Shown: positions 1,996 to 63,897 of the stretch, piece after piece
Position numbering within the stretch: position 1 is the first letter of the stretch
Layout: every line of letters begins with the position of its first letter
NCBI GenBank assembly: GCA_040954595.2
Contig: CM082596.2
Coordinates: forward strand, 7,456,468-7,520,467
DNA length: 64,000 nt
Origin: Balanoglossus misakiensis
Lineage: Eukaryota; Animalia; Hemichordata
Direction: 5' to 3'
The notes under the pieces: model-generated
What the model was told of the DNA's origin: nothing
Seen by the model: the letters and a program-made list of their open reading frames with translations, nothing else
The model's database searches: none
Program-made: the position numbers and the translations under genes

Positions 1996-2759
1996 TACAC
2001 AAAATACAAAAGGCTAATGAGCCCTAAAACAGGAAAGCTATCTCTTAATATCATAAGCGTCAAACCCAAGACATCTGCAACAATGTAACTGGACGATAAT
2101 AAATTAAAAATTCGCATCTGGAACACTATCAGGTAGTAAAACACAGGTACAATGAAAAAAAGAAGAAATTTTAAAAATAGGATATTTTTGCACAGAACCC
2201 AGCATTAGCAACAGGGCAGTCAAGCAAAATGCATCCCCTACACTTAGAGATATTTGAAGTTAACCTATTGTTTTCCTGGCTTGTCTCACTCTGGTTTCAG
2301 GGGTGGGTGGGGGTGGGTAATGACGGCAACAACTTTGCCAGTGGGCCGAATCTACTTCACATTGTTTTTAGATTTACAGAATAACAATTCTGTCCACACA
2401 TAGTGTGTAATGAACGACACTAGGTACGTGTCCTGAAGGGCAGCCCGGGTCATTCACTTCCTTGTGACAGAAAAATAAAAGCAGTTGGATAAATGCACAC
2501 ATTGGACTAAATTATTTCTTACATGAGTATGTGCATCAATATTAATGTTATCGAAGTTTTGAAATAGTCACGACTCAACCCTGTTTTGAAAGCTGAGTAT
2601 ATTATAATCTGAAAGATTCAGAAATTTAAATTTACTTTACGATCTAAGGATAAATGCCCGTACATAGCTAGAGCACAACGTGGAGAAGACAGAGGTCACG
2701 GAGGTACAAAGGGTGAAAGGTCATACGTCACTGGGGTGCGAAGGTGAAAAGGTGGTCTA

Positions 2760-5700
2760 TCACGACTGGTCCGACTCTGCTTGCTGTACCGGCGCCGGTG
2801 ACGGGACTTGGGTCGGGGGCGCCACAGAGGTGTTGATGGGGAACGAGGGGAGGGGGGCGGGGCCCGGAATGGTGGCGAACGACGCCGGGAGGGGCCCCGG
2901 GGGCGGGATTTTGAAGTCGGCCGGAAGCGAGACGGCCGGCATGGGTATCGACGACGGCAGGGAGAGCGGGGGGTTCGGTATCGACCCCGCCCCCATCGCC
3001 GTGGTCGACGGATTCGTCAGCCCCTGCGCAGCCGGAAATTGAATATTCATGTTGGCGAGGCCGGGTATGCTCGGTAGAGTCATCGGGGCTGAAAGATACA
3101 AAAAAAATGTCAGTCAGTGAGAGAAACAAAAGACTAGAAAAAAAAATGAAATTTACTCGTAACTATTTCCACACATTCCCAATAAGTACACCTCAAAAGG
3201 GAACTGACAGACCACAATTCGGTCTTCAGGATCAAACAACACGCCAAATTCTTTCCTCTAATCATACAAAAAAACTTTCACTTTCTTCTGCACATACTGA
3301 TGCACACATGAAAAAATCCTGTTAGACAGTGGCTGAAGTTACACCCCCCCCCCCCAACATAAAAGATCCTTGATCAGTAGCCTTTTAATGGAACAGACCG
3401 ATGATTCAATCATAAAACACAGTCAAACCTGTGTTAGTGGCCACTCTGTTACAGTGCCAGTGCAATTAAAGGCCAGTTTAGGAAAGTCCCTTGACTGGCC
3501 ACTCTTGACAGGTTTGACTGCGTTTTTTTCACCAGTTATCAGCCTCTCGTCATACTCGAATCAAAGAAACTTACTTGGTGGTAACATGGCCGAACCTGCT
3601 GTGGACACCGGCGCATACGTTCCACCCGCAGCCGTTGATGGTATGACGGGGATCGTCGGGGTACCACCGGCAGTCAGGGGACTGGTCACACCCGTGGACA
3701 CATTCACTGGAACGGTTGTTCCTAACGATAACGCCGATACTCCCGTTTCTATCCCAGCCGTCGTCGTATGAGGTGAACCCGATAATGAAACCTGAAACGA
3801 AATCATGGCAGGTTATAAAACTGAAACTATTGCTAGTATTATACTTTAGCTCAGGCCATATGCACATAAAATAACACATACAGTAAAATAGCAATTAATT
3901 AAGGTAAAAAAAAGTTAACTAGGGACATTTCTCTGTTTCCAGAATGTTTATTGAAAATAGGAATCTATGAATCACTAGGATTTAAAACAAAGTTAGCCAG
4001 TCCTATCATTATTTTACACTCAGGTGGATTATTTTGTAGATTTTTTGATCAATCAGCTCCAACAGTGAAATTATAACATTTCTGCTTTTACAATATCTTT
4101 CTTGTGTTTGAAGACTTACCTCTGAAAATCCGTCAGGAGGTGGAGTGACTGACGACAATGGTTGTGGGGGTATAGACGGATCTGCAGGGGGCGATGGCAT
4201 GCCTTCAAACTGCTTTGTTGGTATCCTATGCAAATAACCGTAGCCTATACCACAGCCGAGACTGTGAAGAAAAAAATACAATCACCGCCGTGTCAGTGAA
4301 GTCTAGCTACCGAGCATACAACCGCAAATAGTCAACACTATTACAGCAGGGTAAATCCTGTGGGGAGATTTTTTGTTTTGTTTGAGTGAAAGTAGCTAAA
4401 TTGTCCATCAGTTGCGTTTTCACACGAAAAGTTTGGAGTGGCTTCTTGACTATTACGAAAAGCACAGGCACGAAGTATGAACGTCTCAGGTGCAGAATTT
4501 TTCTCCATATCACTGTTAAAATGATCGACCTACACTCACTTGTGTTTACTGTAAAAACACTTTATTTTCGCGAGCAATAAATTTTCGCGTAATACGCGAG
4601 AGCCAAAATAGCGTGAAAATAAAAAGTCGCGTAAATTTTTTTGAAGATAACGATGCAGTTGTGAAATACGAGAACGCGAAATTAATCCTCGCGAAACAGT
4701 GGCCTCTCATGATATCGCGAAAAATTTCAACTCGCAAAAATAAAGTGTTTTACAGTATATAAACTCACTCACCTTCCTTCACCTCCCCAGTTTGAATTCG
4801 GAGTAAGTGTGACTTCTCTGACGCCGTCCGTTTCCACGTTGTATACATATAATTTTAGAGGTCTACCTTCATGGGATTCTATCAGGGAAAACAAGTCTTC
4901 CGACTGAAAGCGAGAAAGAGACAGGAATTATTATCTGTTGCATCACTGAACATTCTCTCTCTCGTGGACTGATCCTTAAAAGCATGCTATGGACATACAC
5001 AGACAGACACGTGCACACACAGACGGACACACAGATGGACACACATTACTCACCTCATGGAGTACAGAGTCAGCTCCTATGATATAATCTGTATTCGACC
5101 TAAGACCTGCATAATCAGCTGGACCATTGGGTTGTACATCCTGCAATAATGAATAAAAGACAATGAGTACACATACCATTAATAGCCCTGTAGTTACTAT
5201 AGACTAACAAGACACAAACAGTATAATACCATATGGTAAGTGCAAAAGTCCCTTGACACTATTCTTGTGATTGAAGATTTTGACTGTAGGCAATTCGCAA
5301 CAGGTGAAACGTGGAATCACTTTCTATAGAACACTGCAGTAGACTGCAGGCAGCATTTTATTCCGGGGGTAAGGCTTTTGCGAACTCTGCTGTTTACCTT
5401 AAAGGTATACAGTCACCCCCAATTTACATACGCCCATATATGGCTGAATGAAATGGCATATTTGAGCGTTCTAAAGAACATATGGTGGCACTCTTTTTTT
5501 CGCCACCCACTGAAAATCTGTGATTGGTTAGATCTCATTTTGCCATGGTACATTTTGTAACTATAGCTAATTTTCCATAGGTGACCGTATACCTTTAACA
5601 GTCCTAAATCCTAACCACTGGTCCAGTGAATACTCTCTACTGCACTGAACTATACTTGGACTAAGAGAGAGAGATACTCGGGGGAAATTTTGAAGGTAAC

Positions 5701-6951
5701 ATATAATAGAGTCTCGCGCTTTACTCACCAAGACATGCCACACATTTTCATTGGCCCCTTCAAAGGAACAGAATCGAATGCTAACTCCCAGAAGCCCCTG
5801 GCCGCCCCAGGCATTGCTGGGCGTCAACATGACTTCTCTCGTCTTCAGAGACTTGCTGCTGTACACCAACATCCTCACCGGTTTCTCCATGTTACTTTTC
5901 AAGATTTCTTTCAACGTGTCATTGTCTTTGTCCTGAAATTAAGGAAGGTAAACACATGTATTTTATAACTCATACAATCCCTACAACCATCTACTGGTGA
6001 GGTGGCGAAATCGTTTTTTTTTTTTAATGCAGATGGAAATTTTTAATGAAAAGGATTAGGAACAACCAGATGTACTCACCAGTCTCTGGTTGCCAATAGC
6101 AACAATAAAGTCAAAGAAAGCCTCTAAGCCAGCCTTGTGCCCGGGGGAATTCTCCTGTACCTACAGGTGAGAAAAGTAAACCAGTTATACATCATTAGTA
6201 AAACTACAGTTTTAAGCAGCAATAAATGCACATTGCAGCACAGTTATTTTCAATTGGTTAAGAGATAACCTACATTTATAAACAGTGGGCACACAGTCTA
6301 CAGTATGGTTCAAGTTTCTATGCGCATATCGAATGATGACGAAGAATTAGGGTTAGGGATTTTTGCAGAGTCCAATTTTGTTAACATCTGAAATGGACAC
6401 GTTGAGGCGACGTGTCGATGCGGGCACTCGCCTCGTACGGTTGATTGCATTAGCACATCGACAGGTACGGTGGTTTGACCGTTGGCAAGATTCGATTTGT
6501 CCGCATTATGGGCTGTGTTTAAATTTGCCAATGGTGACTGTGCAACACAATAACATTTGTTTGCACGGTTACGACACCGGTGCATACCGATTCGTACGTC
6601 CGCGTCCGATCTCATCGCCGTGAGTGATGGCTCTCTAGTTAGCCCCTCCGCGCCGCTGGGGTCAAGCGATGCGATCAGAGAAGACAATGACGATTGGTTT
6701 TATCAAAACGATCACTGCCGTGAAATCAAACTTAAATCATACCTTCTTTATCATGTTTATCATTAGTCAAAAGCGTTCCACATGTTACACTGGTTCCGAC
6801 TTCCTGACCCGACATGCATGTACAACTATGACCCGGTGCCAGACAAGGAGATGTTTTGACAGTAAAACACGCAGATATTTTCACTTACCCTCAAGACGTG
6901 GTATCCTTCCGAGCCGCCTCCCGGCACCTCTGCACTTGAAGCACCGCCCAT
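2760..6951 (-). CDS. GORASP2: Golgi reassembly-stacking protein (GRASP55/65 family), 8 coding exons, ~417 aa
   Basis: Exons 6889-6951, 6080-6160, 5729-5932, 5054-5140, 4773-4903, 4120-4261, 3575-3791, 2760-3088; all GT-AG and phase-consistent (1254 nt). Translation [21 protein letters not shown]|[27 protein letters not shown]|[12 protein letters not shown]...[27 protein letters not shown]|DVQPNGPA...[20 protein letters not shown] is the recognisable tandem-PDZ GRASP domain with myristoylatable Gly2, followed by a Pro/Ser-rich tail. An invertebrate gene may be co-orthologous to GORASP1 and GORASP2. Confidence 0.96.
3420..3520. mobile_element. MITE family C (CAGTCAAACCTGT TIR, Tc1/mariner/pogo-like ends)
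   Basis: CAGTCAAACCTGT...ACAGGTTTGACTG; longer relative at 37765-37944. Confidence 0.7.
4547..4757. mobile_element. MITE family B (TA-flanked, CTGTAAAA TIR)
   Basis: TA-CTGTAAAAACACTTTATTTT...AAAATAAAGTGTTTTACAG-TA, with internal CGCGAAAA repeats. Confidence 0.8.
5399..5598 (+). mobile_element. MITE family A, copy 2 (GORASP intron 3)
   Basis: Same TIRs, TTAA flanks and internal sequence as 1803-1995. Confidence 0.85.
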
Positions 6952-9691: not shown

Positions 9692-10824
9692 TTATGCTTG
9701 GGGCAACAGTGGGCTTGTCTCGTCGCTCTCTTGGTCACGGCCAGCTGGGCTGTTTTCCAGCGCTGCTATCGTGGCTTTGAAATCTTCGGTAAAATCCGAA
9801 ACTGTCTCCTTGATGTCTTCGGCAACTTTCGGGACTTTCTTGAACTCGCCGATGTTGTGCTTGGCGCTGACCACAGCCCCGGGGACCTGCATTGGCGCCA
9901 GACCACAATTCTTCACCGAGTTGATTATTTGCGGGGCCCGCTCGTCCAGTATGTCCTTGGCTCGAGCTATTGCGTCCGGGAGCAATTTCACGATCCCCGT
10001 CGCCGTGTCGCTGATCTTACCCATTGATTCTTCGAGTTTAGCGGCGATGTCTTCGACGTTCTGGTCTTTGTGACCACTTTTTGGACCGGTGGTAAGTACA
10101 AATTTTGGGCCGTTTTCGAGTCGCAATTTCAAATTGGCTGTAGGTGATAAACAATGGAGGGAACTCCTTGTTAGAAATACTCCGGGCTATGTTAGAAAGT
10201 GAAAGCAAGAAAATTCATACCTACTGTCTATGATACAATACACATGAAAATCTGAAAACGACAGAAGTTTAACCAAATGATGATTGATGGTGGCTCTTTA
10301 ATAACGTGACCTTGTGACAGATGACATCTTTTAATTTTGTTAAACAACAACAGCAACAACAACAACGACAACAACGTCAAACAAAGATGCAACCAGAAGG
10401 AGACAGCTTACGGTATTTTGCTTTCAGATCCACCACCGTGTCTTTCAGACTGTCTTCCTTGTCGTGTCCAGCGGCCTCCTTGAAATTGTTCACCGCCTGT
10501 TGGAACGCCTTCCTCGTGTCCACCGCCTCGTTGAACGGAGAGGCGGCGTCATCGAAAATCTTATCTATGTTGTCGATCTTCATCGATTTCATGTTCAGTT
10601 TCTTGACGTCCTTGGCCGCTTGACTTTTCTGCGAAGAGCAGAGAACGAAACCGAATCAGTAGAGACCATCTTAGACTCTCTGTAGCTCCCGGCCTCGGTG
10701 ATAAGCACCAAAGAGGCCTGTATCTGCGTCTTTCTACGAATATTTGTCATTCGTTCAAGTATATATGTCATGATAGAGAGCAGCTCCGTTGGGTACTTAC
10801 ACAACAACAACACTTGTTTCCCAT
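9692..10824 (-). CDS. Lipidated helical protein family, paralogue 1 (~228 aa), unknown function
   Basis: Exons 10801-10824 (MGNKCCCC|gtaagt), 10412-10628, 9692-10137; intron phases 0 and 1; GC-rich codons. Core KKLNMKSMKIDNIDKIFDDAASPFN...YPNLKLRLENGPKFVL...HNIGEFKKVP; C-terminal ETSPLL. Confidence 0.88.
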
Positions 10825-11041
10825 GGTCACCCGGCTTGAAAATTGACGAATGGTAGAAATGCTAGAAAACGTCTCAGGTCTGCAACTATCTCTGAACTGT
10901 GTTAACAGGACTCAGAAAATGAGACTACACAAGTGACAACGCAATGCACACGGTGCATCAAGCAGTACTAAGTAAAAGCTCGGTCACCGGATTGCGGCGT
11001 TCCGTATCCTTATTTCTATTTTTGGCGTTATTTTGAGGTCA

Positions 11042-11051
11042 GGAAATTCCC
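11042..11051 (-). promoter_or_regulatory. NF-kB consensus site (GGGAATTTCC) upstream of paralogue 1
   Basis: Exact GGGRNWYYCC match 218 nt upstream of the ATG at 10824. Confidence 0.45.
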
Positions 11052-11368
11052 AGTAAACGTTGTTTGTCGCTCTGTTGCTCTTTTGTTCATCAAGAAGCCC
11101 ACCACGCAAGCGCGTGGGAGGAAGAACGCGTGAGGCACACGTCACTTTAGCCGGTGAACGAACTTTCTAAGGTTGAACTTTCTCGAACTAACTTGTGCAG
11201 CAAGTCTGTTACTACCCCCGGCAGTAGCCTACCGCGATAGATTTGGGGTGGGGATTGGCGCTCTGTCGCTGGAAATCGTAGCTGCTTCTAAAACGGCATT
11301 CTAGATGTGAGAAGACACAGATTTCTATAGCTAAATGAAAGTCACCCTTGTGGGAGCACCAATTATCA

Positions 11369-11384
11369 GAAACGAAAGTGAAAG
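11369..11384 (+). promoter_or_regulatory. IRF-E/ISRE-like element (GAAACGAAAGTGAAAG) upstream of paralogue 1
   Basis: Triple GAAA including the canonical GAAAGTGAAAG, ~550 nt upstream of the ATG. Confidence 0.4.
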
Positions 11385-12577
11385 CGTTCATTTTTGTTTG
11401 CCGGAAGTGATATGCCAGGGCCGTAACCCGACCACCACTAACTTAAACAGTAAGTTAAATACCCCTCTTGTATATGTATATCCTGCGGTTGTAACGTTGG
11501 CTCATTTAAATACTGGTACAAATCTTGCTATTGGGAAAATGTGTCACGTTGTACATTTATGCATTCGTGGACTTTGGAAATGGACATTGAGTAATTTCTA
11601 TAGTTTGCTTTCGGCTTTGCCTGGGTCGTTTTTCTTATATACATATACATGTACTGGCAAAAGTGTATCGACTGGCCCAGTACACACCTAGTACCAGTAC
11701 CATGTCCTCTCCATACCTTCTATAGTGAGTAAATTTTACCGGAAAGGAGTGTGTGACCTTCGCACCGTCTTGAATAAACTTAACATCCAAATAGTTGTTT
11801 TGGTATATACTATCCTCTTTATTTACCCAAAAATCTTAACTATCGCACTATGTACCATAAAACTATCCAACTAATATGACATATAGTATGTCACAGTACA
11901 AACTAAACATACTTGAAAACTATCCAGCACCTTTGCAATTTGATTTTGTGATTTAGGACATATAGATTTTTTGTGACCACTATCGATGTTCAATACTTTT
12001 TTATAAGATTTAGATTTTTACAGAAACTAAACAGAGAATCCAAGGCATCATTGCAGAGAAAATTTCAGTACATAAAATACAATGCTTGTACAGTCACCAA
12101 GCTTGTAGTTTGTGACACCAAAACAGAACCACTAAACTCCCGCAGTTATTATACTGCCAACTTTTCATTCCACGTTAAGTTACCTGTAATGCCAACCCGC
12201 GTAACCATCATTCTAAATATCTTACTATAACATATCATGAAATTATTAAATGCGAAGTTATGTGGGGGGTTCAACTCACTAATAAAGCGACGAACCTTCC
12301 CCGAAAACGACTCAAAACATGCCAAAATAACGTATCTGACTATCTTATCCAGCCTATATCAACTCACGACCTTGTCAACACGTGAAATACAAATAACTTC
12401 TTCAATTTATTCTGATTTTTAAATTTAAAAAAGATCTATTCTAACTACTTGTATATATAACTACAGTAATGTACTTAAAGTTACTTACATCAGCTCTTGA
12501 AACTACAATCTCAAGCAGAAATCTAACACAACTGCATGCCTATTAATGAAACCAATACATCGTTTATGTGTATTAAC

Positions 12578-12680
12578 GTTAAATCTCAATCTGATTAAAA
12601 TCAGATGTAGGGCACGGCGACTTGGTCCAAGTCCCCGTTCCCGTTCCCTACATCTGATTTTAATCAGATTGGTTAAATTT
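12578..12680. mobile_element. 85-bp foldback mini-element with 26-bp TIRs and a 9-bp TSD (Mutator-like)
   Basis: 12587-12671: CAATCTGATTAAAATCAGATGTAGGG...CCCTACATCTGATTTTAATCAGATTG, flanked by GTTAAATCT / GTTAAATTT. Confidence 0.7.
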
Positions 12681-13076
12681 CAGAGTAAATGCAAAGGACG
12701 GACTCGCCATCAGCTATCCCCCGGTATTATTTGGCGTTGCGAATCGTGATTTCAGTTTGTCAAGCTTCGAACTTGCATACTAGACGTTGTCAATCACCAC
12801 AGCACAGTTCTTCTCCCATCTCGACATGTCACTATTAAGGAGCAGCACCCCCTGACAAGCCATCAACACCTTCTTGCATGAATTAAAGTCACACGTGACT
12901 TTGACAATCTAATGATTGAGATATTACAAATTTTAAGACTACTTTTGTTATTTCATGTCATTTAAAGATAAATATCGTGAGAGTAGAGGTTAAACTTTGC
13001 ACCACAAGAAGTACTAGTATCCAGTACAACAATTTCCTCGATAAAATTATTTCATTTGATTTATTCGGATCTTAAT

Positions 13077-15771
13077 TTATTCTTTGTCTATTAATTGAGT
13101 AGTTTCCGTTGCTTCCGGTTTTTTCTCCTGGCCGTTTTCTGTGACTTCCTGTTGTTTCTCCGGTTCGCTTTCCGATTCGCCGAGTTTCTTGGCGACCTCA
13201 CGCAGCTCTTCTTTGAAACCGCCCAGTTTCTCCATCACGGCAGCCTGTATGGAGGGCGCTTTCTCGCACTTCCTGATGTTGCCGGCGACGCTCTTCTGAG
13301 CCAGGGCCTTGTCTCCCTGGCTCAGCTCGCTGTCGCCGACCCGCGCCTTCAGGTCTTCGGCGTCCGTGACGATTTTGTGGGTGGACTCCACGGCGGCGTT
13401 GAACGAGTCGCCCATCTTCGCACTGGACTCGTTGATGTGCTCGAAGGCACCGATGATCTTTTCGCCGAAAGATTCGCTGGCATCGCCGCTGGGGTCTCCC
13501 ATCGTCAACACGAATTTGCCATCCTGCTCGGCCAGGGTCATATTGGCTGCAAGTATGAAAATTTGTATCATCGCTATCAAAAGTGTTGTCCACTTAGATT
13601 GACATGCAAAAGACAAAAATCACACCGCGATACTCAAACCTGGCCTTTAGTGTATGCCTGTTCAAAGTCCCTCTATTACAGAGGGACTGTAGTCTGTTTT
13701 ATTCGATGTGTACAGATTGCAACTACTTTAGGGAGTAAAAGTCAAATGGAAGTGACAGTGCCACCAGCGTTCGGAGTATGATAAAAAAAAACGTTGACGT
13801 TTGTTTTCTGTCCAATATATTTGATCAGAATTTTGACAAAATAACGCGAAACAAAAAGTGTACGAAACAAAGGTATTTTTCGTTGTCTTGCTTTGTCTTG
13901 TCACATTTTGGTCTTCAGTGAATACTTACGATACGTTGCCCCTTTGACTTTGAGGAAAGTCTCTCCGATGCTGTCCCATTTCTTCTGCCCCGTCATCAAC
14001 TTGAACTGCTCTATGGCCTGTCCGTAGGCTTCGTACGCTTCGATGGTCTCGTTGAAGGGCGCCACCGCGTCGTCGAACGTCTGATCCAGGTCCGAGATGT
14101 TGGTCTTCTCCATCTCCAGCTTCTGAATCTTCACGTCTTTCAGTTCGGAGCTCGAGTCTGTTGTATCTTTGTCGCCTCCCTGGTTGTGACAGAAAATATT
14201 TACGTGCATTTGAGAAAATGTGCGCTACCCACGCCGTCCAGGTCACAGAACGTGTTTGTGTGGACGCGAAAATAAACAGTGTTATAGGGTTTAGAAGCGT
14301 TCGGGAGTAAAGATGGCTGAAATTATGTGGAAGGCAAAATTAATATAGATTGCAATACTGGAATTTCAGTGTGTGAAACATGTACCACAGAATTCCCCCC
14401 CCCCCCCAGGGAATCAAATGGTTCTCCCCTAAACGCACATTGATATATATCAAACCTACTCGCAAAAGAAGAAATTAAACTTTTATATATACGCCCGTAT
14501 TCTCACCAAAAGTCAACCCAGAATATTGTGCGTGGGAAGACTGTACGATGATTACGCAACCCGCACAATGCAATAGTGACCCATCAATTATTTTGTAACA
14601 GGTTGTTCGAATGGGTGGTACAGGTAATGCAGGAATGAAGGACGTAACAGACTTTTTTCTGTGCGGCCCTTTCACGATATAACCAACGAGAACATAATTG
14701 GCGATGAATTAAACCGCGTTGATATAATATCTCTATGACGAGTAATAAGTATGTTTTGGTTTGACCTACGATGAGAATGCGATTTTATAAACAATTTATG
14801 TAAATTACATAAATATGAATTATTTATGTGTGTTATTTTATATAAATAATATGTGCTCGTTTTCATTTTCCCTCGTGAAACAAAATCGATTTCAGTAATT
14901 TTTTCTTGAATTTTGCATTGTGCTGTGTTTGGTTAGGTCATACGTCGCAAGCTCCTGTTTGCTGGCTTTGATGAGGCAACGGTTTGAAATGTAAAATGTG
15001 ATGGGCACGCGTATCGACATATGGTACAATGACGGAGCGCTACAAACGATGAATAAAAGAGAAACGGGATAAAAGCGGTGTTTTCATGAATTCAAAGGAC
15101 GAATTAACCCGATCACTGCAATGAGCAGGTAACAAGTCAGACAGATTCAGCGGATTGAACAGCCTGAGCCTTGCTAAACCGCCAAGGATCTAGACACGAA
15201 ACGACGCTGTTTATTTTCTGTCAGTTGTAAGCGGGGGCCGATTTTAGAAGTGATAATTACTAGCTACTGTGGTCAATATGGCTGGTAATATAGTAAACAT
15301 CATCTTTTGTGCAGAACGCTGCAGGAATATTGGGTAAAAAGCGAAGTGATTATAAAAAGCAGTTTGTGTGTTTTTTAACTGTTGTGTCAAAAAGAGTCCC
15401 TGTTAATGGGGTGTGGCAGCACGTCTGAATTATCGGAACAATAGGAATTCTACGATTAAAACAATAAAAAAATATGACGTGTGGTCTTTAGCGTTTTATA
15501 TGCATCTAAAGCATCATGGACAAGCGGGTGCGTGATATGGTTCAAAAATGTATGTGAACGGAGGAGAAAATCTCCCTTTTTACGACATGACGCAGTCCTT
15601 GTACCGCCAGAAAAAATAACCAACTGGCAGGCGATGGACCCTGACATAAATTTGACTGGGGATTACTGCGCATCACAAAAGGACAGATGCTAAGCTCACA
15701 TGACATAGACGATTTAAACAACTTACAAAGCAATCCAGGAACGGACACAGGACGGAATACAGGCAGCCCAT
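13077..15771 (-). CDS. Lipidated helical protein family, paralogue 2 (~254 aa), unknown function
   Basis: Exons 15727-15771 (MGCLYSVLCPFLDCF|gtaagt), 13930-14179, 13077-13546; phases 0 and 1 as in the paralogues. Core QKLEMEKTNISDLDQTFDDAVAPFN...YPNMTLAEQDGKFVL; C-terminal ETTQLI. Confidence 0.87.
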
Positions 15772-16495
15772 GGTTCACGAATTAAATCCACGAATCGTTG
15801 CGATCGACGTTTTCACGATTTTGTTGTATTTGATCACAGTCGGAGGGGAAAAAAACATGCATAAAACATCTAATTGTCGCAACTACCAGCTGTTGTGGCT
15901 GGTGGCTATTTTTGTCGTGCTAATTTGGTTTTGTCGAATGCTGCCATTAGCCTGATGGATAAGTTAGAGTTTTTGTCGTGTGCGGGTGACGTCATCGTGA
16001 CCAGGAAGCGGCGGTTAAAAGAGCAATATTAACCCGTTTGTGCAGGTTCCCCCAAGGGGTCATTGGAGGTCACTCCTTCAGACAGATAAATCAATTTCAT
16101 ATTCCTTTGTTTTTATCTTCATGGCGTGGCAGATTTTAGCGAAATAAATTGTTGGTGTCATCTGTTTGGTTGTTTGTTTGCTTTCCTCCTATGCATATCG
16201 GTTGCGTTGCACCCCCTGTCATCCGTCCCGCCCATACGCGCACTAAATATGTTGACTTTCGCAAGATCAAACATGCACGCGTCGTGATGAATTTCTCGGT
16301 TTATTTTTGACAAAGTCAACACATTAACCAATTTTTACAGTATTTACCAACAGATTGTATAAGTCTATGTAATATACGGTTCATACGTGAGTGTTTTAAG
16401 CACCCAGACAGGCTGAGGCAAAGAGCATCATATTTTTAGAAACGCCATATGCATCGTTTTGAAAACCGTCAAAAGTGGAGCTGCAACACTCTATA

Positions 16496-16692
16496 TTAAA
16501 GGTATACGGTCACCTATGGAAAATTAGCTCTAGTTACCATGGCAAATTGAGATCTAGCCAATCACAGATTTTCAGTGGGTTGCACACGCGAAAAAAAGAG
16601 CGCCACCATATGTTCTTTAGAGCGCTCAAATACTAGTACGCCATTTCAGCCATTTCAGCGTACGTAAATTGGAGGTGACCGTTTACCTTTAA
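16496..16692 (-). mobile_element. MITE family A, copy 3 (inverted)
   Basis: TTAA-AGGTATACGGTCACC...GGTGACCGTTTACCT-TTAA; internal sequence is the reverse complement of copy 1. Confidence 0.85.
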
Positions 16693-16942
16693 CGCCCATA
16701 TCTACTCTAGACTCAATGCCGCCATTACTTTATTCCCCCCTACACACACAAGTAGTCGTTGCCTTTAAAAAGTCACTATGAAATTATCAAATTCAAATTA
16801 TTGCTTATTTGAATTTCAGATTATTTTATGTAATATTATCCAAGAATGCCAGTCCGCCCTTCTTGCTATCACCATTTCCATGATTTTATTCCCAAAGTGA
16901 CGTCATTTATTATTGTTTACTTCACATACAATTCAGATAGTG

Positions 16943-17074
16943 AACACCTATTGCCTGGCCATGAGGGCCATAGCAGCCGTTTATTACACCCGAGGGGCTG
17001 TGAGTTACCAGAATCACATACGAGGGGGTAAAAACGGCTGCTATGGCCCGAATATAGGCCAGGCCATAGGTGTT
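16943..17074. repeat. Imperfect long palindrome (hairpin-type interspersed repeat)
   Basis: AACACCTATTGCCTGGCC..GGGCCATAGCAGCCGTTT pairs with AAACGGCTGCTATGGCCC..GGCCAGGCCATAGGTGTT. Confidence 0.65.
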
Positions 17075-17599
17075 TTATAATAAACCTCATATCTGTGAAC
17101 TCACATTGGTCACGTGACCGGTTTATATTTGTTCTGCTATTTCCCTAGGGATTCATAGTCGATTCTATTTTCTTATCGCGTGACGGATTCTGGCGAATCA
17201 CGACACAGTATTAGCATGAGGTATATTATAATAAATTCTATTCACTCTGATCGTGATACATACTGAAGAACAAGGCCCAGACTCCCATATATTCTAAAAA
17301 AAAAGAGTGTGTACATTTACTTAATTATTATGAAAGTTAGTCGCGTTGACACATCGCAATTAACTCCAAATGGAGTCCTATGTGTACTATTTTTGGTGAT
17401 TCAAAAAAATTAATTGTCTGAAATAAAATGAAAATACCCTGTCGCTTGAGTGAATTTTCAAACAAACACTATTTAGGCTAATTTAAATTAAATTAAAGCT
17501 TAGATTAAGGGTTTGGACCCATGTTTCGATTTCAGAAATCTGAGGGACTTTGGTTTAACCAGTATAATAATAATCTTTCGTGTGATTGTCCAATGCTTC

Positions 17600-19355
17600 C
17601 TATTCAATCAACTTTGTTTTTTCAGTCGCCTCGGTCGTTTTTGCTTGAGTGGTATCCTGTGCTGCGGGTTCGGCGCTGGGGGCGGGGTCTCCTTCTTCCA
17701 GCTGGGTCAGGCTCGGCGCCTGCTGTTGCGGGTTGACTCCGATCAGATCGCGAGCCTCTCGGACCTGCTCGGCGAAGTCGTGGATGAGGTCGAACATCTT
17801 CAGCTCGATGTCCGGCACCTGGCGGAACTGGCTGATGTTGCGGAGAACCACCCGCGTGGCCTTGTAGATCTCCATGATTTCCAGGTCCTCCTGCTTGATG
17901 GCCTGTCTCAGTCCGGCCACCTCGCCGATGATGTTCTCCGCGTCTTTGGCGGCGTCCCCAGCCAGATCCACCACCTCCGTGGCCAGGTCCCCGATGGCCG
18001 CGAACTGCTCGGTCAGCCTGACGGCCTTCTCTTGGGTCTGAGCCGTGGGCACCTTGGCCGCCCCCGGAATCAGGGTAAAACTCAGACCCTTGCCCACTTG
18101 CAGTTGGAGATTAGCTGTAAAAGACACGAGACATTAATTCCATATACGAGTCAAGCTTTGCATGACACTAGAATAGATGCAGATTTTTTTAATGGAACCT
18201 TTAGGCCATATAACATGTGCCAAGTGGTGTTTGTACTGTGTCACATAAAACTGCCCCACCCACGTTAACTATCTAGTCACGCGAGATCTCCAGGGTCTCG
18301 TGGACTTCGGAAAGTGGTCTATTTAGAATATCGCAGCCGGGTTCAGTTTTAGATAATGGGGACGGTGTCTCATCCCTCAATTGCCCCCGCGACCTGAAAA
18401 TAAGCTGTATTTTTTTTTTTAAATTTTACTTACGATATATTCTTTTCAAGTTAATAAGCGTCGTCTTCAGAGACGTGCCGCTCCTGGACCCGGCTGTGGT
18501 TCTGAAAGCCTTCACGCTGCTCTGAAAATTGACGACGGCATCCACGGTCTTGTTGAACGGATCGGCCGCGGTCTCGAAGATCGTGTCCACACTTTCTATG
18601 TTCGTCCGCTCGATTTCCAACTTCTGAATGACAGCCTCGTCATCGTCGCCGCCGCCACACAGCGAAGCCTGTGCGAAGAAAACTCAGAAATTTCAGACAA
18701 TAAAATGGCGTCAGGCTGAATTGGGCAGCAGAATTCCTTGCTTCAAGCAATTCCGCGATAACTTGATCTTTTACTGACATCGGATTCCTTGAAATGATTA
18801 TAAAGGCCCCTGTTTGTTGACGAGTGCATAAACAACAAACATTTTGCACACGGAACTGTTTATCGGGAAACCAAAGATCAACCGGGCATAACAGGTTGCC
18901 CCTTTAATTAATTCGGCCAATGGAATCGCTGTCAAAATTCAAACAATTACTCTAGTCGGGGCTTTGGACCGTATTTGTCTTTATGGCAATTCATTGCATG
19001 ACATAAACGCCATCAGCTGTACATACCTTCTGAGGTATTTCCTTCGCGTTAGATGTTCGCAGACAATCCGAATTCTCACAAACAGTGCACGACAAAACAA
19101 ACAGTCCGCGACAAAAATAAAAATTAAGCCAATTTTTTTTCAAAATAGGTTGCCGACAAGCTCTGAAGGTCGCCGACATTTCAGGCGAAGTGTTTCACAA
19201 GCCCGACCGCCGGTTTCTTTCGAAGGAACCACGGAAATCCGTCAAACCAACCCATGTCACAAAATGAGACCCTCATCACGTCTAATGTAACATTTTTTTT
19301 ATAAAAAATGGGGGGAGGGGGAGGGAATACTCACGCAACACCCTATACACCACAT
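17600..19355 (-). CDS. Lipidated helical protein family, paralogue 3 (~256 aa), unknown function
   Basis: Exons 19335-19355 (MWCIGCC|gtgagt), 18434-18668, 17600-18114; phases 0 and 1. Core QKLEIERTNIESVDTIFETAADPFN...YPNLQLQVGKGLSFTL...RNISQFRQVP; C-terminal EKTKLI. Exon 1 is the least certain part. Confidence 0.84.
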
Positions 19356-20985
19356 CGTTTCTCAACGGACACGTAACAACGTATGGTGACTCTCCGAATA
19401 TTCAACTGAATCACAGCTTTCTGTCAGAGAGAACAACATCTGTTGTTCGTCACTGTCGCCGAAAACATGATATTCTACACATGGCGCACAAACAGTGAGA
19501 GAGGTGTTTGCATCTCATTTGCATATTTCACTTAAATAGAGGGAGAACTGAAAATGTTCACCAGAAAGTTTGTTTTTTTTAATTCCGCTAGCTATAACTT
19601 TTTTCACTATTTTTTTCATTATTCTTTGATCCCCGAAGAAGAATTAAATACCCAGTTAGCTTTGTCTGAGAAAATGAACCATTGCTGCATGCAGTCTGTC
19701 GTTTCCGCTTTACAAACCATCGTTGAAGGGGGAAATCTTTCGTTCATCGTAAATTGGCACAATTCAAGATTAATGTTTTGTTTTGTTTCGTTTTGTTTTC
19801 TTTTCTTTTCTTTATATATGTACTTTTACGCTGGCCCGCTAACAAGAATGTGTTACAATACAAATGACCTAATAAATTTAAATGAAAAGGAACTTTAGTG
19901 TTCGAAATTTGTTTCTTATTCGAATCCCTGAAACGTAACATGATGACATGTCAAGTACATTTAGTTTGTTAGCACACCAATATGCGTTCAGTCAGCATTG
20001 TTATTTTCGAAATTTGAATTTAAGTCCGCACTAGAACTCTTTGTCGTCAATAACAAGCAATGGTTGCAGACAAGCTGAATACTGAGATTTCTTGCATGGA
20101 TGGAAAATGCCGTCAGTACAGTTAGAGCCGGTAAAAGCTTTAAACAAATCGGTTTTTCGCATGTCCTTTTAGGCCATATGCTTAAATATTAACCTTGCAA
20201 GTACACATTGAATGTTGGAACAAAACAAAAGCAACACATGTGACCAAGGATAATCGCCTTAGAAACAACAATGGTCAGGTTTTGTCTAAAAATAAGTCGA
20301 GAATTTCGAAATGTGCGCATCACTATGCGCATATCATCATGCATGATCAATATCTGAATATCCTAGTTTCTCAACTAAATGAACAGTGTCATTTGTTTAA
20401 CTCTGACTGATAACGCGAAGTAAAATTCGCGCTTTATTATTGTTCCTCGTCACCAAAATATATAATAACAACCCTTTAATTAAAATTTAATAAATGTGAA
20501 CTCTTAAAACTTGGATATAGGCCTATGTACATTTGTATCACAATATAACGGAGCAGAATTGTCCTCTAAAATCTGCATATCTACAAAGGACGTGTCGGGG
20601 GTCAAATTATTATATCTCATCGATTACTTCATATATATGTTTCAGCACCGTGACGGCTAGGGGCCAGACGATAGCCGTGCTCCGCTTCGTATTGCAGGCA
20701 CGGCGGCCTCCGCTGCTACACCCCATGACGATCAATGGACGGTGCGCGCCAGGTAATAAATTTTAGCATTGGTACCAATATGGAAGTATTGGTGCGTTTG
20801 GATTCTATGAATAGCCAGTGACGTTTGTGAAATCTTTCTTCTGTTTTACTGATTCTATGAAGATTTTACACTTTTCATAAAATGAACAGAACAGCATTTC
20901 AACGGAATTCACGCATAACCCGTTTCCTATTAAGGTTGTTTGTTCGGGCATAGTTTCAAAATCTGTTCATGCTCCCAACTCCGAC

Positions 20986-21180
20986 TTACAGGTATACGGT
21001 CACCTCCCGTCTACATACAGTACGCCCATGCATACATTTTGCAGAAATGGCATATTTGAGTGTTCTAAAGAACATATGGCGGCGCTCTTTTTTTCGCATG
21101 TGCCACCCACAGAAAATCTGTGATTGGCTAGTTCTCAATTTGCCGTGGTAACTAAAGCTATATTTGCATAGGTGACCGTA
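20986..21180 (+). mobile_element. MITE family A, copy 4 (damaged ends)
   Basis: AGGTATACGGTCACC...GGTGACCGTA with the family internal sequence; right end truncated. Confidence 0.8.
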
Positions 21181-21984
21181 GGGCGATACAAAACCAAATT
21201 AGATGTGACTCTTAATAAATGTTGTTTAAAAATATACATTTTATTATCACTTTTCGTACATTTGAATTATACTATAGCTAGCATTGCTCTACATATATAC
21301 GTACGTGCAATAAAATGCAATATAACAAAGAACTTTGTCCGCGGGGTCAGTCAACATCCGGGTTACTTTAGAGCAAATGTGTTAAAGAAAGCAAGCAAGG
21401 ATACTGATAATAAATTTTTGGAGAAACTTCGCCCTGGCCTGTGATGGCGGGCAACCATATTGTGTAATAAAAATGGCAGATTTAATAGTAAGGAAAAATA
21501 TCACATGCGTATATACACAGCTGTAGCTGGATATGAAAATAGTCGACATCATTTTAGTATTTGTTCCGACAAAGATCTGTAAACGCTACTTTCGTCGAAT
21601 TGGTACGCGACTTGTTGTGCGCGCGCCAAGGTGACTTCTTTCTTAAAAAGAAATAAGTACCGACGTCGTCCTGTAAATGGGCGGAATTTGACTTTAGAGA
21701 TGCACTAAAATAAAACAAAAGTTACATACATTATTAAATTATATAATAAATTATTTACAATCTTAGTCATTTTATTTAATCTATGTTCGATTATATGTAA
21801 TCATTGACAGTTTCATTCGTCGAATATTTTTTATTTCAGATTTTAGTGATTTGGTTTCAAATAAACGTTTTATTTTTTTATTTTTACAAATATACAAGTG
21901 TAAAGCGCGCTCATAAGGTTCTTTTACACCTTTTTATCCACGCCAGTTTTATGTGATATGGAAATTTCACCGGGATCTAAGAAA

Positions 21985-24406
21985 CTAGGCCGCGGACTTC
22001 AGCGCTTCGATCGTGTTCTTGACCTCCTGCGTTGTGTCCTCTATTGTCTGCTTGAAGGCGTCGCCGATCACCGGGACTTTCTTGAACTCGCCGACGTTGT
22101 GCATGGCGTTCTTCAGCGCCCTGGGGATCTTCAGCGGGCTCAGTCCCGCGTTCTTCACCATGTCTTCGATCTCCGCCGCCTTCTGGATCAGGGCCTCCGC
22201 CGACTCCACGGCGGTCGTCACCAGCTCGATGATCTCCGACAGCAGCTCGCTGATCTTGACGAACGCGTCGACGATTTTGACGGCCAAATCGGCCACGCCT
22301 TCCCCGCCGCTGCCGTCACCTGCCGTCAACACAAACTTAGGACCTTCCCTGATCTCCAGTGTGAGGTTAGCTACGGAAATGTAAAAAAAGAGAAAGGGAG
22401 ATAACATGGTATTAAAACACCATAAGCTGCAACTTTTGGGAAACTATCATGAAATTCATTTTCACGCTGTACTAATATTAATCAATAAGGATGTATGCAC
22501 TGAAGTATATACAGGTATTATAAACCCCAAGTGTGAGTGTATATGCAAGTTTTAACCAGATAAATAATAAAGCTTTGCCGCGAAGAAATATGGCCGCCAC
22601 CGTGGGAAAAATGCAAAATACAATGAAAACGTTGCAATTCACTGTCTTTTTCAGAACTTCAACGTTGGCCAAATCCAAGGCAAGGAGCTATTTGCCCGTG
22701 CCAATAAATATCATTACGTCCAAAAAAATCTACGTCCACGGTACCAGAAATGAAAGTACGCCCTCAACGGCTTACAGGGACAAGAGACGGGGGCAGTTCT
22801 GGAATGAAATACTCACGAAATTTCATCTTCAGCCCTATAACGACAACTTTTAGAGTATCCTCTTTCGTGTAGCCCGCCATCACTTTGAATGCCTCCACGG
22901 CGGCGTCAAAGGCATCCTTCGCGTCGACGGCTTTGTTGAATGGAGCCGCAGCATCGCCGAACATCTGGTCAAGATCTTCGACGCCCGTTTTCTTGATGTC
23001 TAGCTGCTCCACGCCACCCTTGCTTTCTGGTTTCTGATAAAAATACGACAAAACAACATTCGGTAAACACATTTTGGTTATTTCAGTAAAATGAAACTTT
23101 CCCTGAAGCGCAGAAGTCGACATTTTTCTCAGTATCGCTTAATGCAAAAACACAATCTGCTTAATTGGCACTCTGTATAGTGAAACATAAAATGCCGTCT
23201 AAGAAAAAGTATTGAAGGTATGGCCTTGTGCGGTCGCCCATGCAACTATATAGTAAGAAACCTGTTTTCACTCACTCACTCACTCACTCACTCATTCATT
23301 CACTCACTCACTCACTCACTCATTCACTCACTCCCATAACGTGTTTCGCATCGAAAAGACAGCATTTAGTAACGATACCTAAACTACACTATAGGTACTA
23401 GTATACTACACGGGTTCCCCATACTTAGTAATAGCTCAGCCGAAAATGCCGTAATTATGATAAAACACTTCAATCAAGGATGATGCAGAAGTGATGTCTT
23501 GCAATATCAAGATAACTGGTAACCCCTGGCAATTTCCAATACACAAACGAGATGCGTTTTGATTTTACTATACATGCAGACGCGCGGCAATCAATTCTAA
23601 TTCTTGACCATTTTCTTTTTTTATCTCGGATATTTTATGTCACGGGGGCGGTGCAGTACATGGTTGCTTTGGACATTTTCTGTTGTCCATTCGACCAATC
23701 GATGCGCATGGGTCGTTTGTTTGCATCGCCATGTCAATAGTTGACCGTAGCAACCAGAGTGTTGTTAGCAACCGTAATGATGTTAGTAACTCCCCTATGT
23801 TCTTTCGGTTCGTGGTAAATAAAGACAAACATTTTATCTTCACGCCTTTGTTTTTAATTAGCAGAAATAATACTCATCTAATCATTTATATTGTTCCTTC
23901 TACAGAGATCTAACCAAAAGCGCATTACAGGGAATCGAAAGTAAATTATATATAAATAATTCAAATGTATATAAATAATAAAAACCAATACCATTATGAA
24001 AAAAGTAGACATTTTTTCTTCATTAGCGACACATATCTGGTGCATTGCTTCATTAAAAACAGATCTATTCAATATTTTTTAATTAAGCAAAGTGGCACGT
24101 CACTTTCCCTACAGTAGAAAAAAAGGAAAGTTTGAGCCAAAGTTGAGAAAATATCGAAATTCAAGGAGGCGGCCTCGCGTGATATTTTGGCGGAGGAGTT
24201 AGAAAGACTGGCTCCCTGCGCAGATTTACAAAGAACCGGAGTAAATAATTGAAACATATCGCAACAACACACCGCTTCTGCTGAACGGTAAGCGTGATAA
24301 GAAAGATTAGCAGGAAGTGTAAAATCGTGAGGAAAAATTTAACACCTCGCAATTGACTCACCCTCCCAGAATCAGTTTTTGTCGACGATGAAGATCCACA
24401 ACCCAT
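21985..24406 (-). CDS. Lipidated helical protein family, paralogue 4 (~215 aa), unknown function
   Basis: Exons 24362-24406 (MGCGSSSSTKTDSGR|gtgagt), 22817-23033, 21985-22370; phases 0 and 1. Core EQLDIKKTGVEDLDQMFGDAAAPFN...FPNLTLEIREGPKFVL...HNVGEFKKVP; closest to paralogue 1; lacks the C-terminal tail. Confidence 0.88.
23268..23333. repeat. (CACT)n microsatellite
   Basis: Directly visible tetranucleotide run. Confidence 0.95.
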
Positions 24407-33190: not shown

Positions 33191-33530
33191 CTACTTAGGG
33201 ATGCCTGTAAAATTTAATGCCTTGTCTGGGGATGCCATTTACATTAGAAGTCCTGCTCAGGGATGCCAGTAAATTGAATGTCCAACCTAGGGATGTCCAG
33301 CCTAGGGATGATTTCTACGTTGGATGACCGTCCCAGGGGTGCCGTGTGTATTGAATGTTCAGCCTAGGGATGCCATTAAAATGAATGTCCAGCCTAGGGA
33401 TGCCATTAAAATAAATGTCCAGCCTAGGGATGCCATTAACTTGAATGTCCAGCCTAGGGATGCCATTATTCTGAATATCCAGGCTAGAGATGCTATATAT
33501 ACAAAAATCGAGCCTTGGGATGCCGTTTAC
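33191..33530. repeat. ~30-bp minisatellite (TGAATGTCCAGCCTAGGGATGCCATTAAA-type), ~11 units
   Basis: Recurring CCTAGGGATGCC at ~30-nt period; central units nearly identical, flanks degenerate. Confidence 0.9.
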
Positions 33531-63090: not shown

Positions 63091-63897
63091 TTAGGCTGCA
63101 TTCACAAACACCTCTGGAGGGGGGGGCGGGAGAATTCAATTTTTTTTACCGCTAATTTTCACATGCCCCCCTTCCAAACTGCCAATATTTTCAAATCCCC
63201 CCCTTTCGAACTGCCAAAATTTTGAAATCCCCCCCCATTTTCTTTCACAGAGCAAAACACATCACCTATCTATCTTGTAAAAAGAAAAACAGCACTCCCA
63301 TGAAAAGAATTTGAAACTGATTTTTCCCCTCATCAGTGGGTATTAAAACTGAACATTGTTTTTATTTTTTAAGTACATATATTTGTATTCTGTGTTGGGA
63401 GACATTGTAAACCGATAATTGAAGGGGGTGGGTTTGGGAGGGGGTGTCCCCCTCCCACGTAAGAAAATTTTCTAAAATACAGAGCTCAAAGCTGCATTTT
63501 AATGAACCCGGCTAAAGCAAATTAACTCAACTACCGGTATGTTGGGGAGGACAAATTTAACCGTCGCCGCTCAAAGTTATCATGGGGTGGGGGCAAGTCC
63601 CCTGACCTGGGACACTAGATAAACCAGTCAATGATTGAAAGGTGTTGATGAATGGAGGGGGTGGGTGTGGGAGGGGGTGTCCCCCTCCCACATTAGAAAA
63701 TTTTGTAAAATAAAGGGCGCGAAACTGCATTTTTGTGGACTCAAAATAAATATTTAGTCGTTAAAGTTTTCAAGTCCCCCCCTTTCAGTCCCTAAATTAT
63801 TTCAAATCCCCCCCCTTACATACCCTTAATTTTTTCAAATCCCCCCCCCTCAATTCTCCCGCCCCCCCCTCCAGAGGTGTTTGTGAATGCAGCCTAA
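63091..63897. mobile_element. Non-autonomous DNA transposon with ~43-bp TIRs (PIF/Harbinger-like or TA-targeting)
   Basis: TTA-GGCTGCATTCACAAACACCTCTGGAGGGGGGGCGGGAGAATT...AATTCTCCCGCCCCCCCTCCAGAGGTGTTTGTGAATGCAGCC-TAA; internal direct repeat GGGGGTGGGT..GGGAGGGGGTGTCCCCCTCCCAC at ~63424 and ~63657. Confidence 0.8.

Follow-up and report, generated by a model that had tools for sequence, protein, structure and literature searches.

Four tandem acorn worm genes probably encode free-standing forms of the C-terminal domain of PLC-L/PRIP proteins

A stretch of 64,000 nucleotides from the genome of the acorn worm Balanoglossus misakiensis (GenBank assembly GCA_040954595.2, contig CM082596.2, positions 7,456,468 to 7,520,467; the whole stretch is called the window here) carries an array of four three-exon genes, A to D, that lie head to tail on the minus strand in that order and span 24406 to 9692. 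The domain of about 190 residues that they encode is very probably the C-terminal tail domain of the inactive phospholipase C-like proteins (PLC-L, also called PRIP; PLCL1 and PLCL2), and the array genes, which lie outside the PLC-L family itself, are likely to be free-standing versions of this tail. The array as a whole is most likely a hemichordate expansion of this free-standing domain.

PLCL1 and PLCL2 have been studied for their part in exocytosis, in PI3K signalling and in the traffic of GABA-A receptors (PMC3634480, PMC5511194). If the link is true then the last 200 or so residues of these proteins are a separate, folded and very old domain, and the natural stand-alone versions, small enough for easy expression, structure determination and pull-downs, would make the function of the PLCL tail directly testable. 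It would also be a new domain family, matched by no Pfam or NCBIfam model and present in animals, in protists and in one class of bacteria, and such a spread would bear on what bacteria have contributed to the membrane biology of eukaryotes. As a tandem expansion the array is ordinary, the interest lies in a domain of wide and patchy spread.

Probable relation to the tail of PLC-L proteins

PLCL1 and PLCL2 end in a helical region that follows the C2 domain, and a pattern made from one PLCL1/2 motif fetched 16 metagenome loci, six of them animal-like genes with the motif. For two of these, L013 and L011, neighbouring phase-0 GT-AG exons were joined by script and compared with a family profile (A2) that held no PLC-L sequence. 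L013 scored 64.8 bits and L011 53.5 bits, over positions 23-214 of 224, with maxima of 6.2 and 15.5 among 2000 shuffles of each and scores of 3.1 and 0.7 for the reversed sequences. A profile built from bacterial members only gave 47.3 bits for L013 and 40.4 bits for L011, with shuffle maxima of 9.1. The motif that fetched the loci makes up only 11 of the approximately 190 aligned residues, and the columns D41, F44, N182, G73, L87 and G166-L167 are retained in both tails. Some 50 further residues separate the end of the domain from the stop in L013. It is therefore likely that PLC-L/PRIP proteins possess a C-terminal domain of about 190 residues with the same conserved columns as the array. 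A second line comes from the automatic names given by NCBI to two short relatives from Ptychodera, P0005 (225 residues) being named inactive phospholipase C-like protein 2 and P0009 (230 residues) protein 1 of the same name, and neither of these carries a PLC domain recognised by Pfam.

A number of observations weigh against this identity. There is no exon for a PH, X/Y or C2 domain within the 309 bases available upstream in L011 or the 1286 in L013, hence that these comparison genes are PLC-L, as we infer, depends on the motif and the automatic NCBI names. A weak search with the family profile of proteins of 521-2000 residues returned none among 7992 candidates, and there is no PLC-L protein among the 33 hits obtained with phmmer when P0001, a relative from Glandiceps, was compared with 1.84 billion representative proteins. 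The comparison is weaker when only hemichordate sequences are used (24.6 and 21.2 bits, hhalign probability 88.7%), and no intron position is common to the array and the L013 tail. Were the link wrong, L011 and L013 would not be PLC-L genes and the array would form an unnamed family, none of whose relatives is characterised, which the absent catalytic exons and the blank searches of long proteins would fit. That reading is very unlikely, as the motif was taken from PLCL1/2 before the scan and the genes that it fetched resemble the family along the full length of the domain, with the NCBI names pointing to PLC-L independently.

The array proteins are without PH, EF-hand, X/Y and C2 domains, none being found by Pfam in the eight domain-coding exons or in the orthologues, and have about 20% identity to the L013 tail. 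The PLC-L/PRIP proteins are placed at the membrane by their PH domain (PMC5511194), whereas the array proteins would be placed there by predicted N-acylation. In the passages concerned the domain scheme of PRIP shows only PH, X, Y and C2 (PMC5511194) or counts four SMART domains (PMC9242504), and PRIP is described as binding PP1, PP2A, Akt, inositol trisphosphate (IP3) and phosphatidylinositol bisphosphate (PIP2) and restraining exocytosis (PMC3634480), and as binding GABARAP (PMC4058080). The tail is not treated in those passages of the four papers. No paper on the PRIP tail or on the stand-alone family was found in the literature covered, which takes in few of the subscription journals. The original p130 papers are said to name a C-terminal region.

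The array and its gene models

The first-pass annotation of the window, made from its sequence alone, had proposed four divergent head-to-tail paralogues with a shared architecture, and this is confirmed. When spliced by coordinates each of the four models closes with canonical GT-AG introns and a single open frame, and within the ranges given to the script just one exon combination per gene did so. Intron 1 is in phase 0 in all four. Intron 2, of phase 1, interrupts the Pro of (F/Y)PN at the identical alignment column in each gene. The first exon is tiny (45, 21, 45 and 24 nucleotides in A, B, C and D) and is followed by a second of 217, 235, 250 and 217 nucleotides, giving proteins of 215, 256, 254 and 228 residues. 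Pairwise identity is 25.6-42.6%, with Smith-Waterman z values of 32-70 in all six pairs (300 shuffles). GC content at third codon positions is 0.63-0.75, against about 0.41 for the window as a whole. Of the motifs said to be shared, the (Y/F)PN junction holds in all four genes, whilst C lacks the F and the V of N..F..VP. A tblastn search with the four models and two orthologues as queries found no fifth copy in the window.

Gene A begins with MGC, in which Gly2 and Cys3 are the predicted acylation sites, in an exon at 24362-24406, the same N-terminus is found in P0001 to P0004. Its exon 2 (22817-23033) encodes the N-terminal motif and helix 1, and exon 3 with the stop (21985-22370) the beta-hairpin and helices 3-6, this last exon matching Glandiceps P0001 (71%) and Ptychodera P0002 (64%). 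Gene B has exons at 19335-19355, 18434-18668 and, with the stop, 17600-18114. It starts with MWC, and so has no Gly2, its first exon carries three Cys and its last encodes the domain and an acidic low-complexity tail. The N-terminal length and Cys spacing of B are those of Ptychodera P0012, to which this 21-nucleotide exon fits without a gap, and an alternative MGC-start exon near 20724 was rejected on that ground. Gene C (15727-15771, 13930-14179 and, with the stop, 13077-13546) starts MGC with three Cys, matching Ptychodera P0011, and its exon 3 likewise encodes the domain followed by an acidic tail. Gene D has exons at 10801-10824, 10412-10628 and, with the stop, 9692-10137, and its first exon has Gly2 and four Cys and matches Ptychodera P0005.

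The models are backed by relatives in Ptychodera, Glandiceps and Saccoglossus, annotated proteins of which cross both exon junctions and were annotated independently. The near relatives are enteropneusts without exception. For a further orthologue, P0003, of 216 residues on a 1099-base contig of the Joint Genome Institute, the simplest explanation is that a relative's spliced transcript was sequenced.

Fold and conserved residues

No family could be assigned to the domain by sequence. Pfam gave only sub-threshold scores of the coiled-coil type for the array exons and their relatives, no NCBIfam family matched more than one of 58 members, the seven exons of L007, L011 and L013 match no Pfam family, and matches to PDB sequences (chemoreceptors, designed coiled coils, short pieces) were rejected as compositional. 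The earlier view of a family outside named ones thus stands as far as Pfam and NCBIfam names go, what it missed is the likely relation to the PLC-L/PRIP tail.

The fold was taken from P0001, which is 70% identical to A and stands in for the window proteins. The AlphaFold2 model (pLDDT, the predicted local distance difference test score, 87.5) predicts a disordered N-terminal linker, a helix at 38-71, a short helix at 80-90, a hairpin at 95-107, a helix at 114-153, two short helices and a final helix at 189-216, that is three long helices with an insert of a short helix and a beta-hairpin, so that the helical bundle with one hairpin foreseen from the sequence is borne out at the level of a model. 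A bacterial member, modelled from a bacteria-only alignment (pLDDT 93.3), has the identical order of elements. The most conserved columns are D41, F44 and N182, then G73, L87 and G166-L167. Gly, Pro and hydrophobic residues make up most of the conserved positions. Asp, Asn and Thr are conserved at the ends of helices or close to them, as are a few Lys elsewhere or there, and there is no catalytic-looking cluster among these residues. Nor is there a hydrophobic segment, transmembrane helix or signal peptide in A-D, the highest 19-residue Kyte-Doolittle mean being 0.21-1.43 and lying within amphipathic stretches, in keeping with the first-pass annotation.

It had been suggested that the proteins might be effectors that bend membranes or form pores, in the manner of ESCRT-III and BAR proteins or of ClyA and Hbl. 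A helical bundle with a central beta-hairpin is compatible with this, lineage-specific tandem expansion is common for effectors, and CdvA (Z 8.3, root-mean-square deviation (rmsd) 5.6, 126 residues aligned), YaxB (Z 7.7, 4.9, 147) and AhlB (Z 7.5, 5.8, 160), with PaxB at Z 6.8, are among the structural neighbours of the P0001 model in the VIA search. These scores are tied with those of syntaxin Habc, TBCA and designed bundles, however, and the best Z of 9.0 falls under the guide of about 13 for helical bundles. The proteins also have no hydrophobic segment to insert, their net charge is -2 to -20 (0 to -10 for the core), which is not the basic character of ESCRT-III or BAR proteins, and the orthologues of B-D are retained one to one at 49-68% core identity. 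A role as such effectors is thus unsupported, and highly improbable. Snf7 scored 15.1 bits against a cut-off of 27.3, in one of eight exons. Foldseek returned nothing at E <= 0.001 from the PDB or viral models, the structural neighbours are generic helical proteins, and among the best 50 listed in the VIA search there is no MLKL, BAR or apolipophorin structure.

An exchangeable module that binds or carries lipid, opening onto membranes or lipid droplets as apolipophorin does, is somewhat less improbable, but still doubtful. The helices are amphipathic (hydrophobic moments 0.47-0.72), exon 3 of D scores against the ApoLp-III family PF07464 (19.7 bits, E 0.001), and the exported bacterial members described below could conceivably ferry envelope lipid. 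Amphipathic helices are nevertheless expected of any bundle, the score is far under the cut-off of 36.3 and arises in one of eight exon queries, and in the animal members a signal peptide is lacking and acylation motifs are present.

The long helices are arranged much as in three-helix-bundle adaptors such as tubulin cofactor A and syntaxin Habc (Z 8.0, rmsd about 3, about 105 residues aligned). With 4-10% identity, a Z such as unrelated bundles give and the insert of helix and hairpin left uncovered, they are a possible functional parallel, and homology is not claimed.

Distribution in eukaryotes

A profile of relatives and window exons picked out seven proteins among 6074 candidates, and of the 33 phmmer hits of P0001 eight look bacterial. 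Amongst 22 proteins that were looked up, the named members come from hemichordates, Lingula, Owenia, Mastigamoeba, Pyxidicula, Vitrella and Phytophthora, and the stand-alone form with Gly2/Cys motifs is seen in brachiopods, annelids, amoebozoans, alveolates and oomycetes. The domain therefore reaches animals, protists and, as described below, one bacterial class, which makes it older and less isolated than was supposed when its distribution was first raised as a question. Searches of phages with P0001 and of plasmids with P0023 gave no match, and P0023 found no locus in species genomes. Direct orthologues, up to 70% identical, are XP_070569720/728/734 of Ptychodera, XP_077997837 of Glandiceps and LOC100371105 of Saccoglossus, all automatic annotations without family or function. 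Five Ptychodera members lie on one record of 44.0 Mb and three Glandiceps members on one of 21.3 Mb.

There is some variety in domain arrangement. P0029 has a PX domain, the only one to pass Pfam, and no Gly2. Glandiceps P0008 has two near-identical copies of the domain, and in P0036 a KHA domain lies behind it. An insert of some 100 residues interrupts the domain in P0033, from an oomycete, and in P0035. The annotation of P0033 also places a DAGAT domain after it, which may reflect the fusion of two genes in the model.

Bacterial members

A pattern derived from an alignment of the bacterial-looking hits matched a record from Myxococcota. Of 301 genomes of this phylum 33 have a match at E <= 0.001. 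The 24 among these that reach E <= 1e-13 all belong to one class, in which 59 of 121 genomes match at E <= 1e-10. No match was found in any of the 623 genomes searched from four other phyla (0/151, 0/201, 0/151 and 0/120), with a profile that is biased towards this class because it includes members of it. The link to bacteria is not built in, since it is also recovered reciprocally. When the profile is made from hemichordate sequences alone, 22 of 27 bacterial domains reach 16-40 bits (shuffle maximum 10.1), and when it is made from bacterial ones alone, the four models from the window reach 22-46 bits (shuffle maxima 4.7-10.5). By these profiles, and by the predicted order of elements, the Myxococcota proteins possess the same domain.

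The bacterial proteins would lie outside the inner membrane, 27 of 28 loci having a start that resembles a signal peptide (by a crude rule applied without a control) and five of 28 an OmpA fusion upstream of the domain. They match an ESM Atlas cluster named 'Lipoprotein family protein' with a score of 0.88, which is a lead only. The genes found nearby, encoding MTHFR (4 of 27 loci), a TerB-like protein (4 of 27) and a metallophosphoesterase (3 of 27), are read as local synteny. In L117, L118, L121 and L128 the TerB-like neighbour is a divergently transcribed gene, with the TerB-like domain at the C-terminus of its product, that adjoins the bacterial gene. P0018 and P0019 have an N-terminal part of about 230 residues that by eye resembles an outer-membrane beta-barrel, with no Pfam match. 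Two loci titled 'uncultured Enterobacterales', L027 and L082, have 70% GC and proteins that group with Myxococcota-type members, thus their titles may be wrong.

Phylogeny and history

An unrooted tree, which gives no direction of transfer, was made from 66 rows and 187 columns, with P0033, P0035, P0006, P0037 and L130 excluded as split, partial or near-duplicate. All 16 hemichordate rows fall together (98/95), as do the animal stand-alone forms (97/91), and the bacterial rows are split from all eukaryote-type rows by a branch with 100/100 support. Each window gene pairs with one Ptychodera protein, A at 95/86, B with P0012 at 100/100, C with P0011 at 100/99 and D with P0005 at 100/99. The expansion of the array therefore predates the split from Ptychodera, one ancestral stand-alone gene having apparently been duplicated in tandem in enteropneusts before then, and the idea of an old family, retained and diversified, finds support in these one-to-one partners.

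In the tree the tails of PLC-L type have a long branch and no starred position. Several supergroups of protists have the acylated stand-alone form, which makes its later fusion onto a phospholipase C the simpler order of events. An approximately unbiased test on 33 of the 66 rows does not reject a clade of PLCL tails and hemichordate rows (p 0.415), thus the hemichordate genes could also derive from a PLC-L tail, with fission in place of fusion.

Predicted membrane attachment and proposed role

Gly2 and an N-terminal Cys are present in A, C and D, and in B only the Cys, so B would be palmitoylated only. Among the eukaryote-type members 24 of 29 have Gly2, and 23 of these also have a Cys among residues 1-12. 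The five that do not begin Met-Gly comprise P0036, two proteins of the PX type and two that seem to be fragments. A Gly2 with an early Cys, and no signal peptide or transmembrane helix, is also what SH4-type N-acylated proteins have, A, C and D being alike in this. The array products are thus predicted from their N-termini to be peripheral membrane proteins acylated with myristate and/or palmitate, in agreement with the lipid anchor first proposed, with the reservation over Gly2 in B.

The array proteins would be held on the cytosolic face of membranes by these lipids, where the helical bundle may act as an adaptor without catalytic activity, docking either partner proteins or other molecules that carry the domain, and the differing Cys patterns and tails may send the paralogues to different membranes. 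Given the identity with the PLC-L tail, an adaptor role with hypothetical partners is slightly favoured, and the whole explanation, free-standing PLC-L/PRIP tail domains acting as membrane-tethered adaptors, is held with about equal belief and doubt. The domain is mostly C-terminal and lies behind something that targets a membrane or envelope, be it an acylation motif, a PX domain, probably the PLC-L module, a signal peptide or OmpA, and it is this recurrent position, together with conserved residues that look structural, that favours a tethered non-catalytic adaptor. Against this it must be said that three-helix bundles serve many roles, so the fold is not proof of an adaptor, that most bacterial members look soluble and exported rather than anchored in a membrane, and that bacterial gene neighbourhoods are not conserved.

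The main rival is that the domain is a module for self-assembly, for instance a trimer, which clusters its fusion partners (PLC-L, PX, OmpA) at the membrane, with the stand-alone forms building membrane scaffolds or co-assembling with PLC-L. This seems rather unlikely, if less so than the other alternatives. The position of the domain behind varied targeting domains would suit it, as would the long amphipathic helices, and in Saccoglossus P0010 a collagen trimerisation domain (E 6e-14) lies between the MGCC start and the domain. Native PRIP-1/p130 is reported to be of about trimer size. On the other hand a single chain is predicted to fold confidently alone, and the trimerisation fusion was found in one of 35 scanned proteins and may be an artefact of the gene model. 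A broader proposal, and an unlikely one, makes the domain an ancient membrane-side assembly module shared by eukaryotes and one class of Myxococcota, first free and lipid-anchored, then fused onto phospholipase C near the origin of animals, with the free acylated forms recruiting or regulating PLC-L through like-with-like contacts, as a layer of phosphoinositide signalling that was expanded in acorn worms.

Neighbouring features

Just upstream of the array is a two-exon candidate gene on the minus strand (28805-28761 and 27332-26961) that also starts MGC, its product is short, acidic and apparently disordered, has no Pfam match and is not homologous to the array. Downstream, at about 2700-6000 on the minus strand, are exons of a GRASP55/65 (GORASP) gene, with PF04495 matched at 5567-5935 (E 6e-25). 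GRASPs are myristoylated, thus several neighbours of the array may be N-acylated.

The window also contains repeats. About seven copies of an element of around 200 nucleotides with terminal inverted repeats, likely a miniature inverted-repeat transposable element, are found in both orientations at 1803, 5399, 16496, 20997, 45444, 51451 and 55535, two of them inside the array. A likely non-autonomous transposon at 63091-63897 has perfect inverted arms of 46 nucleotides set 715 nucleotides apart and internal direct repeats. A 30-nucleotide tandem repeat at 33214-33530 is open in one minus-strand frame, and between C and D, at 12590-12672, a hairpin-like element with long inverted arms was noted by eye.

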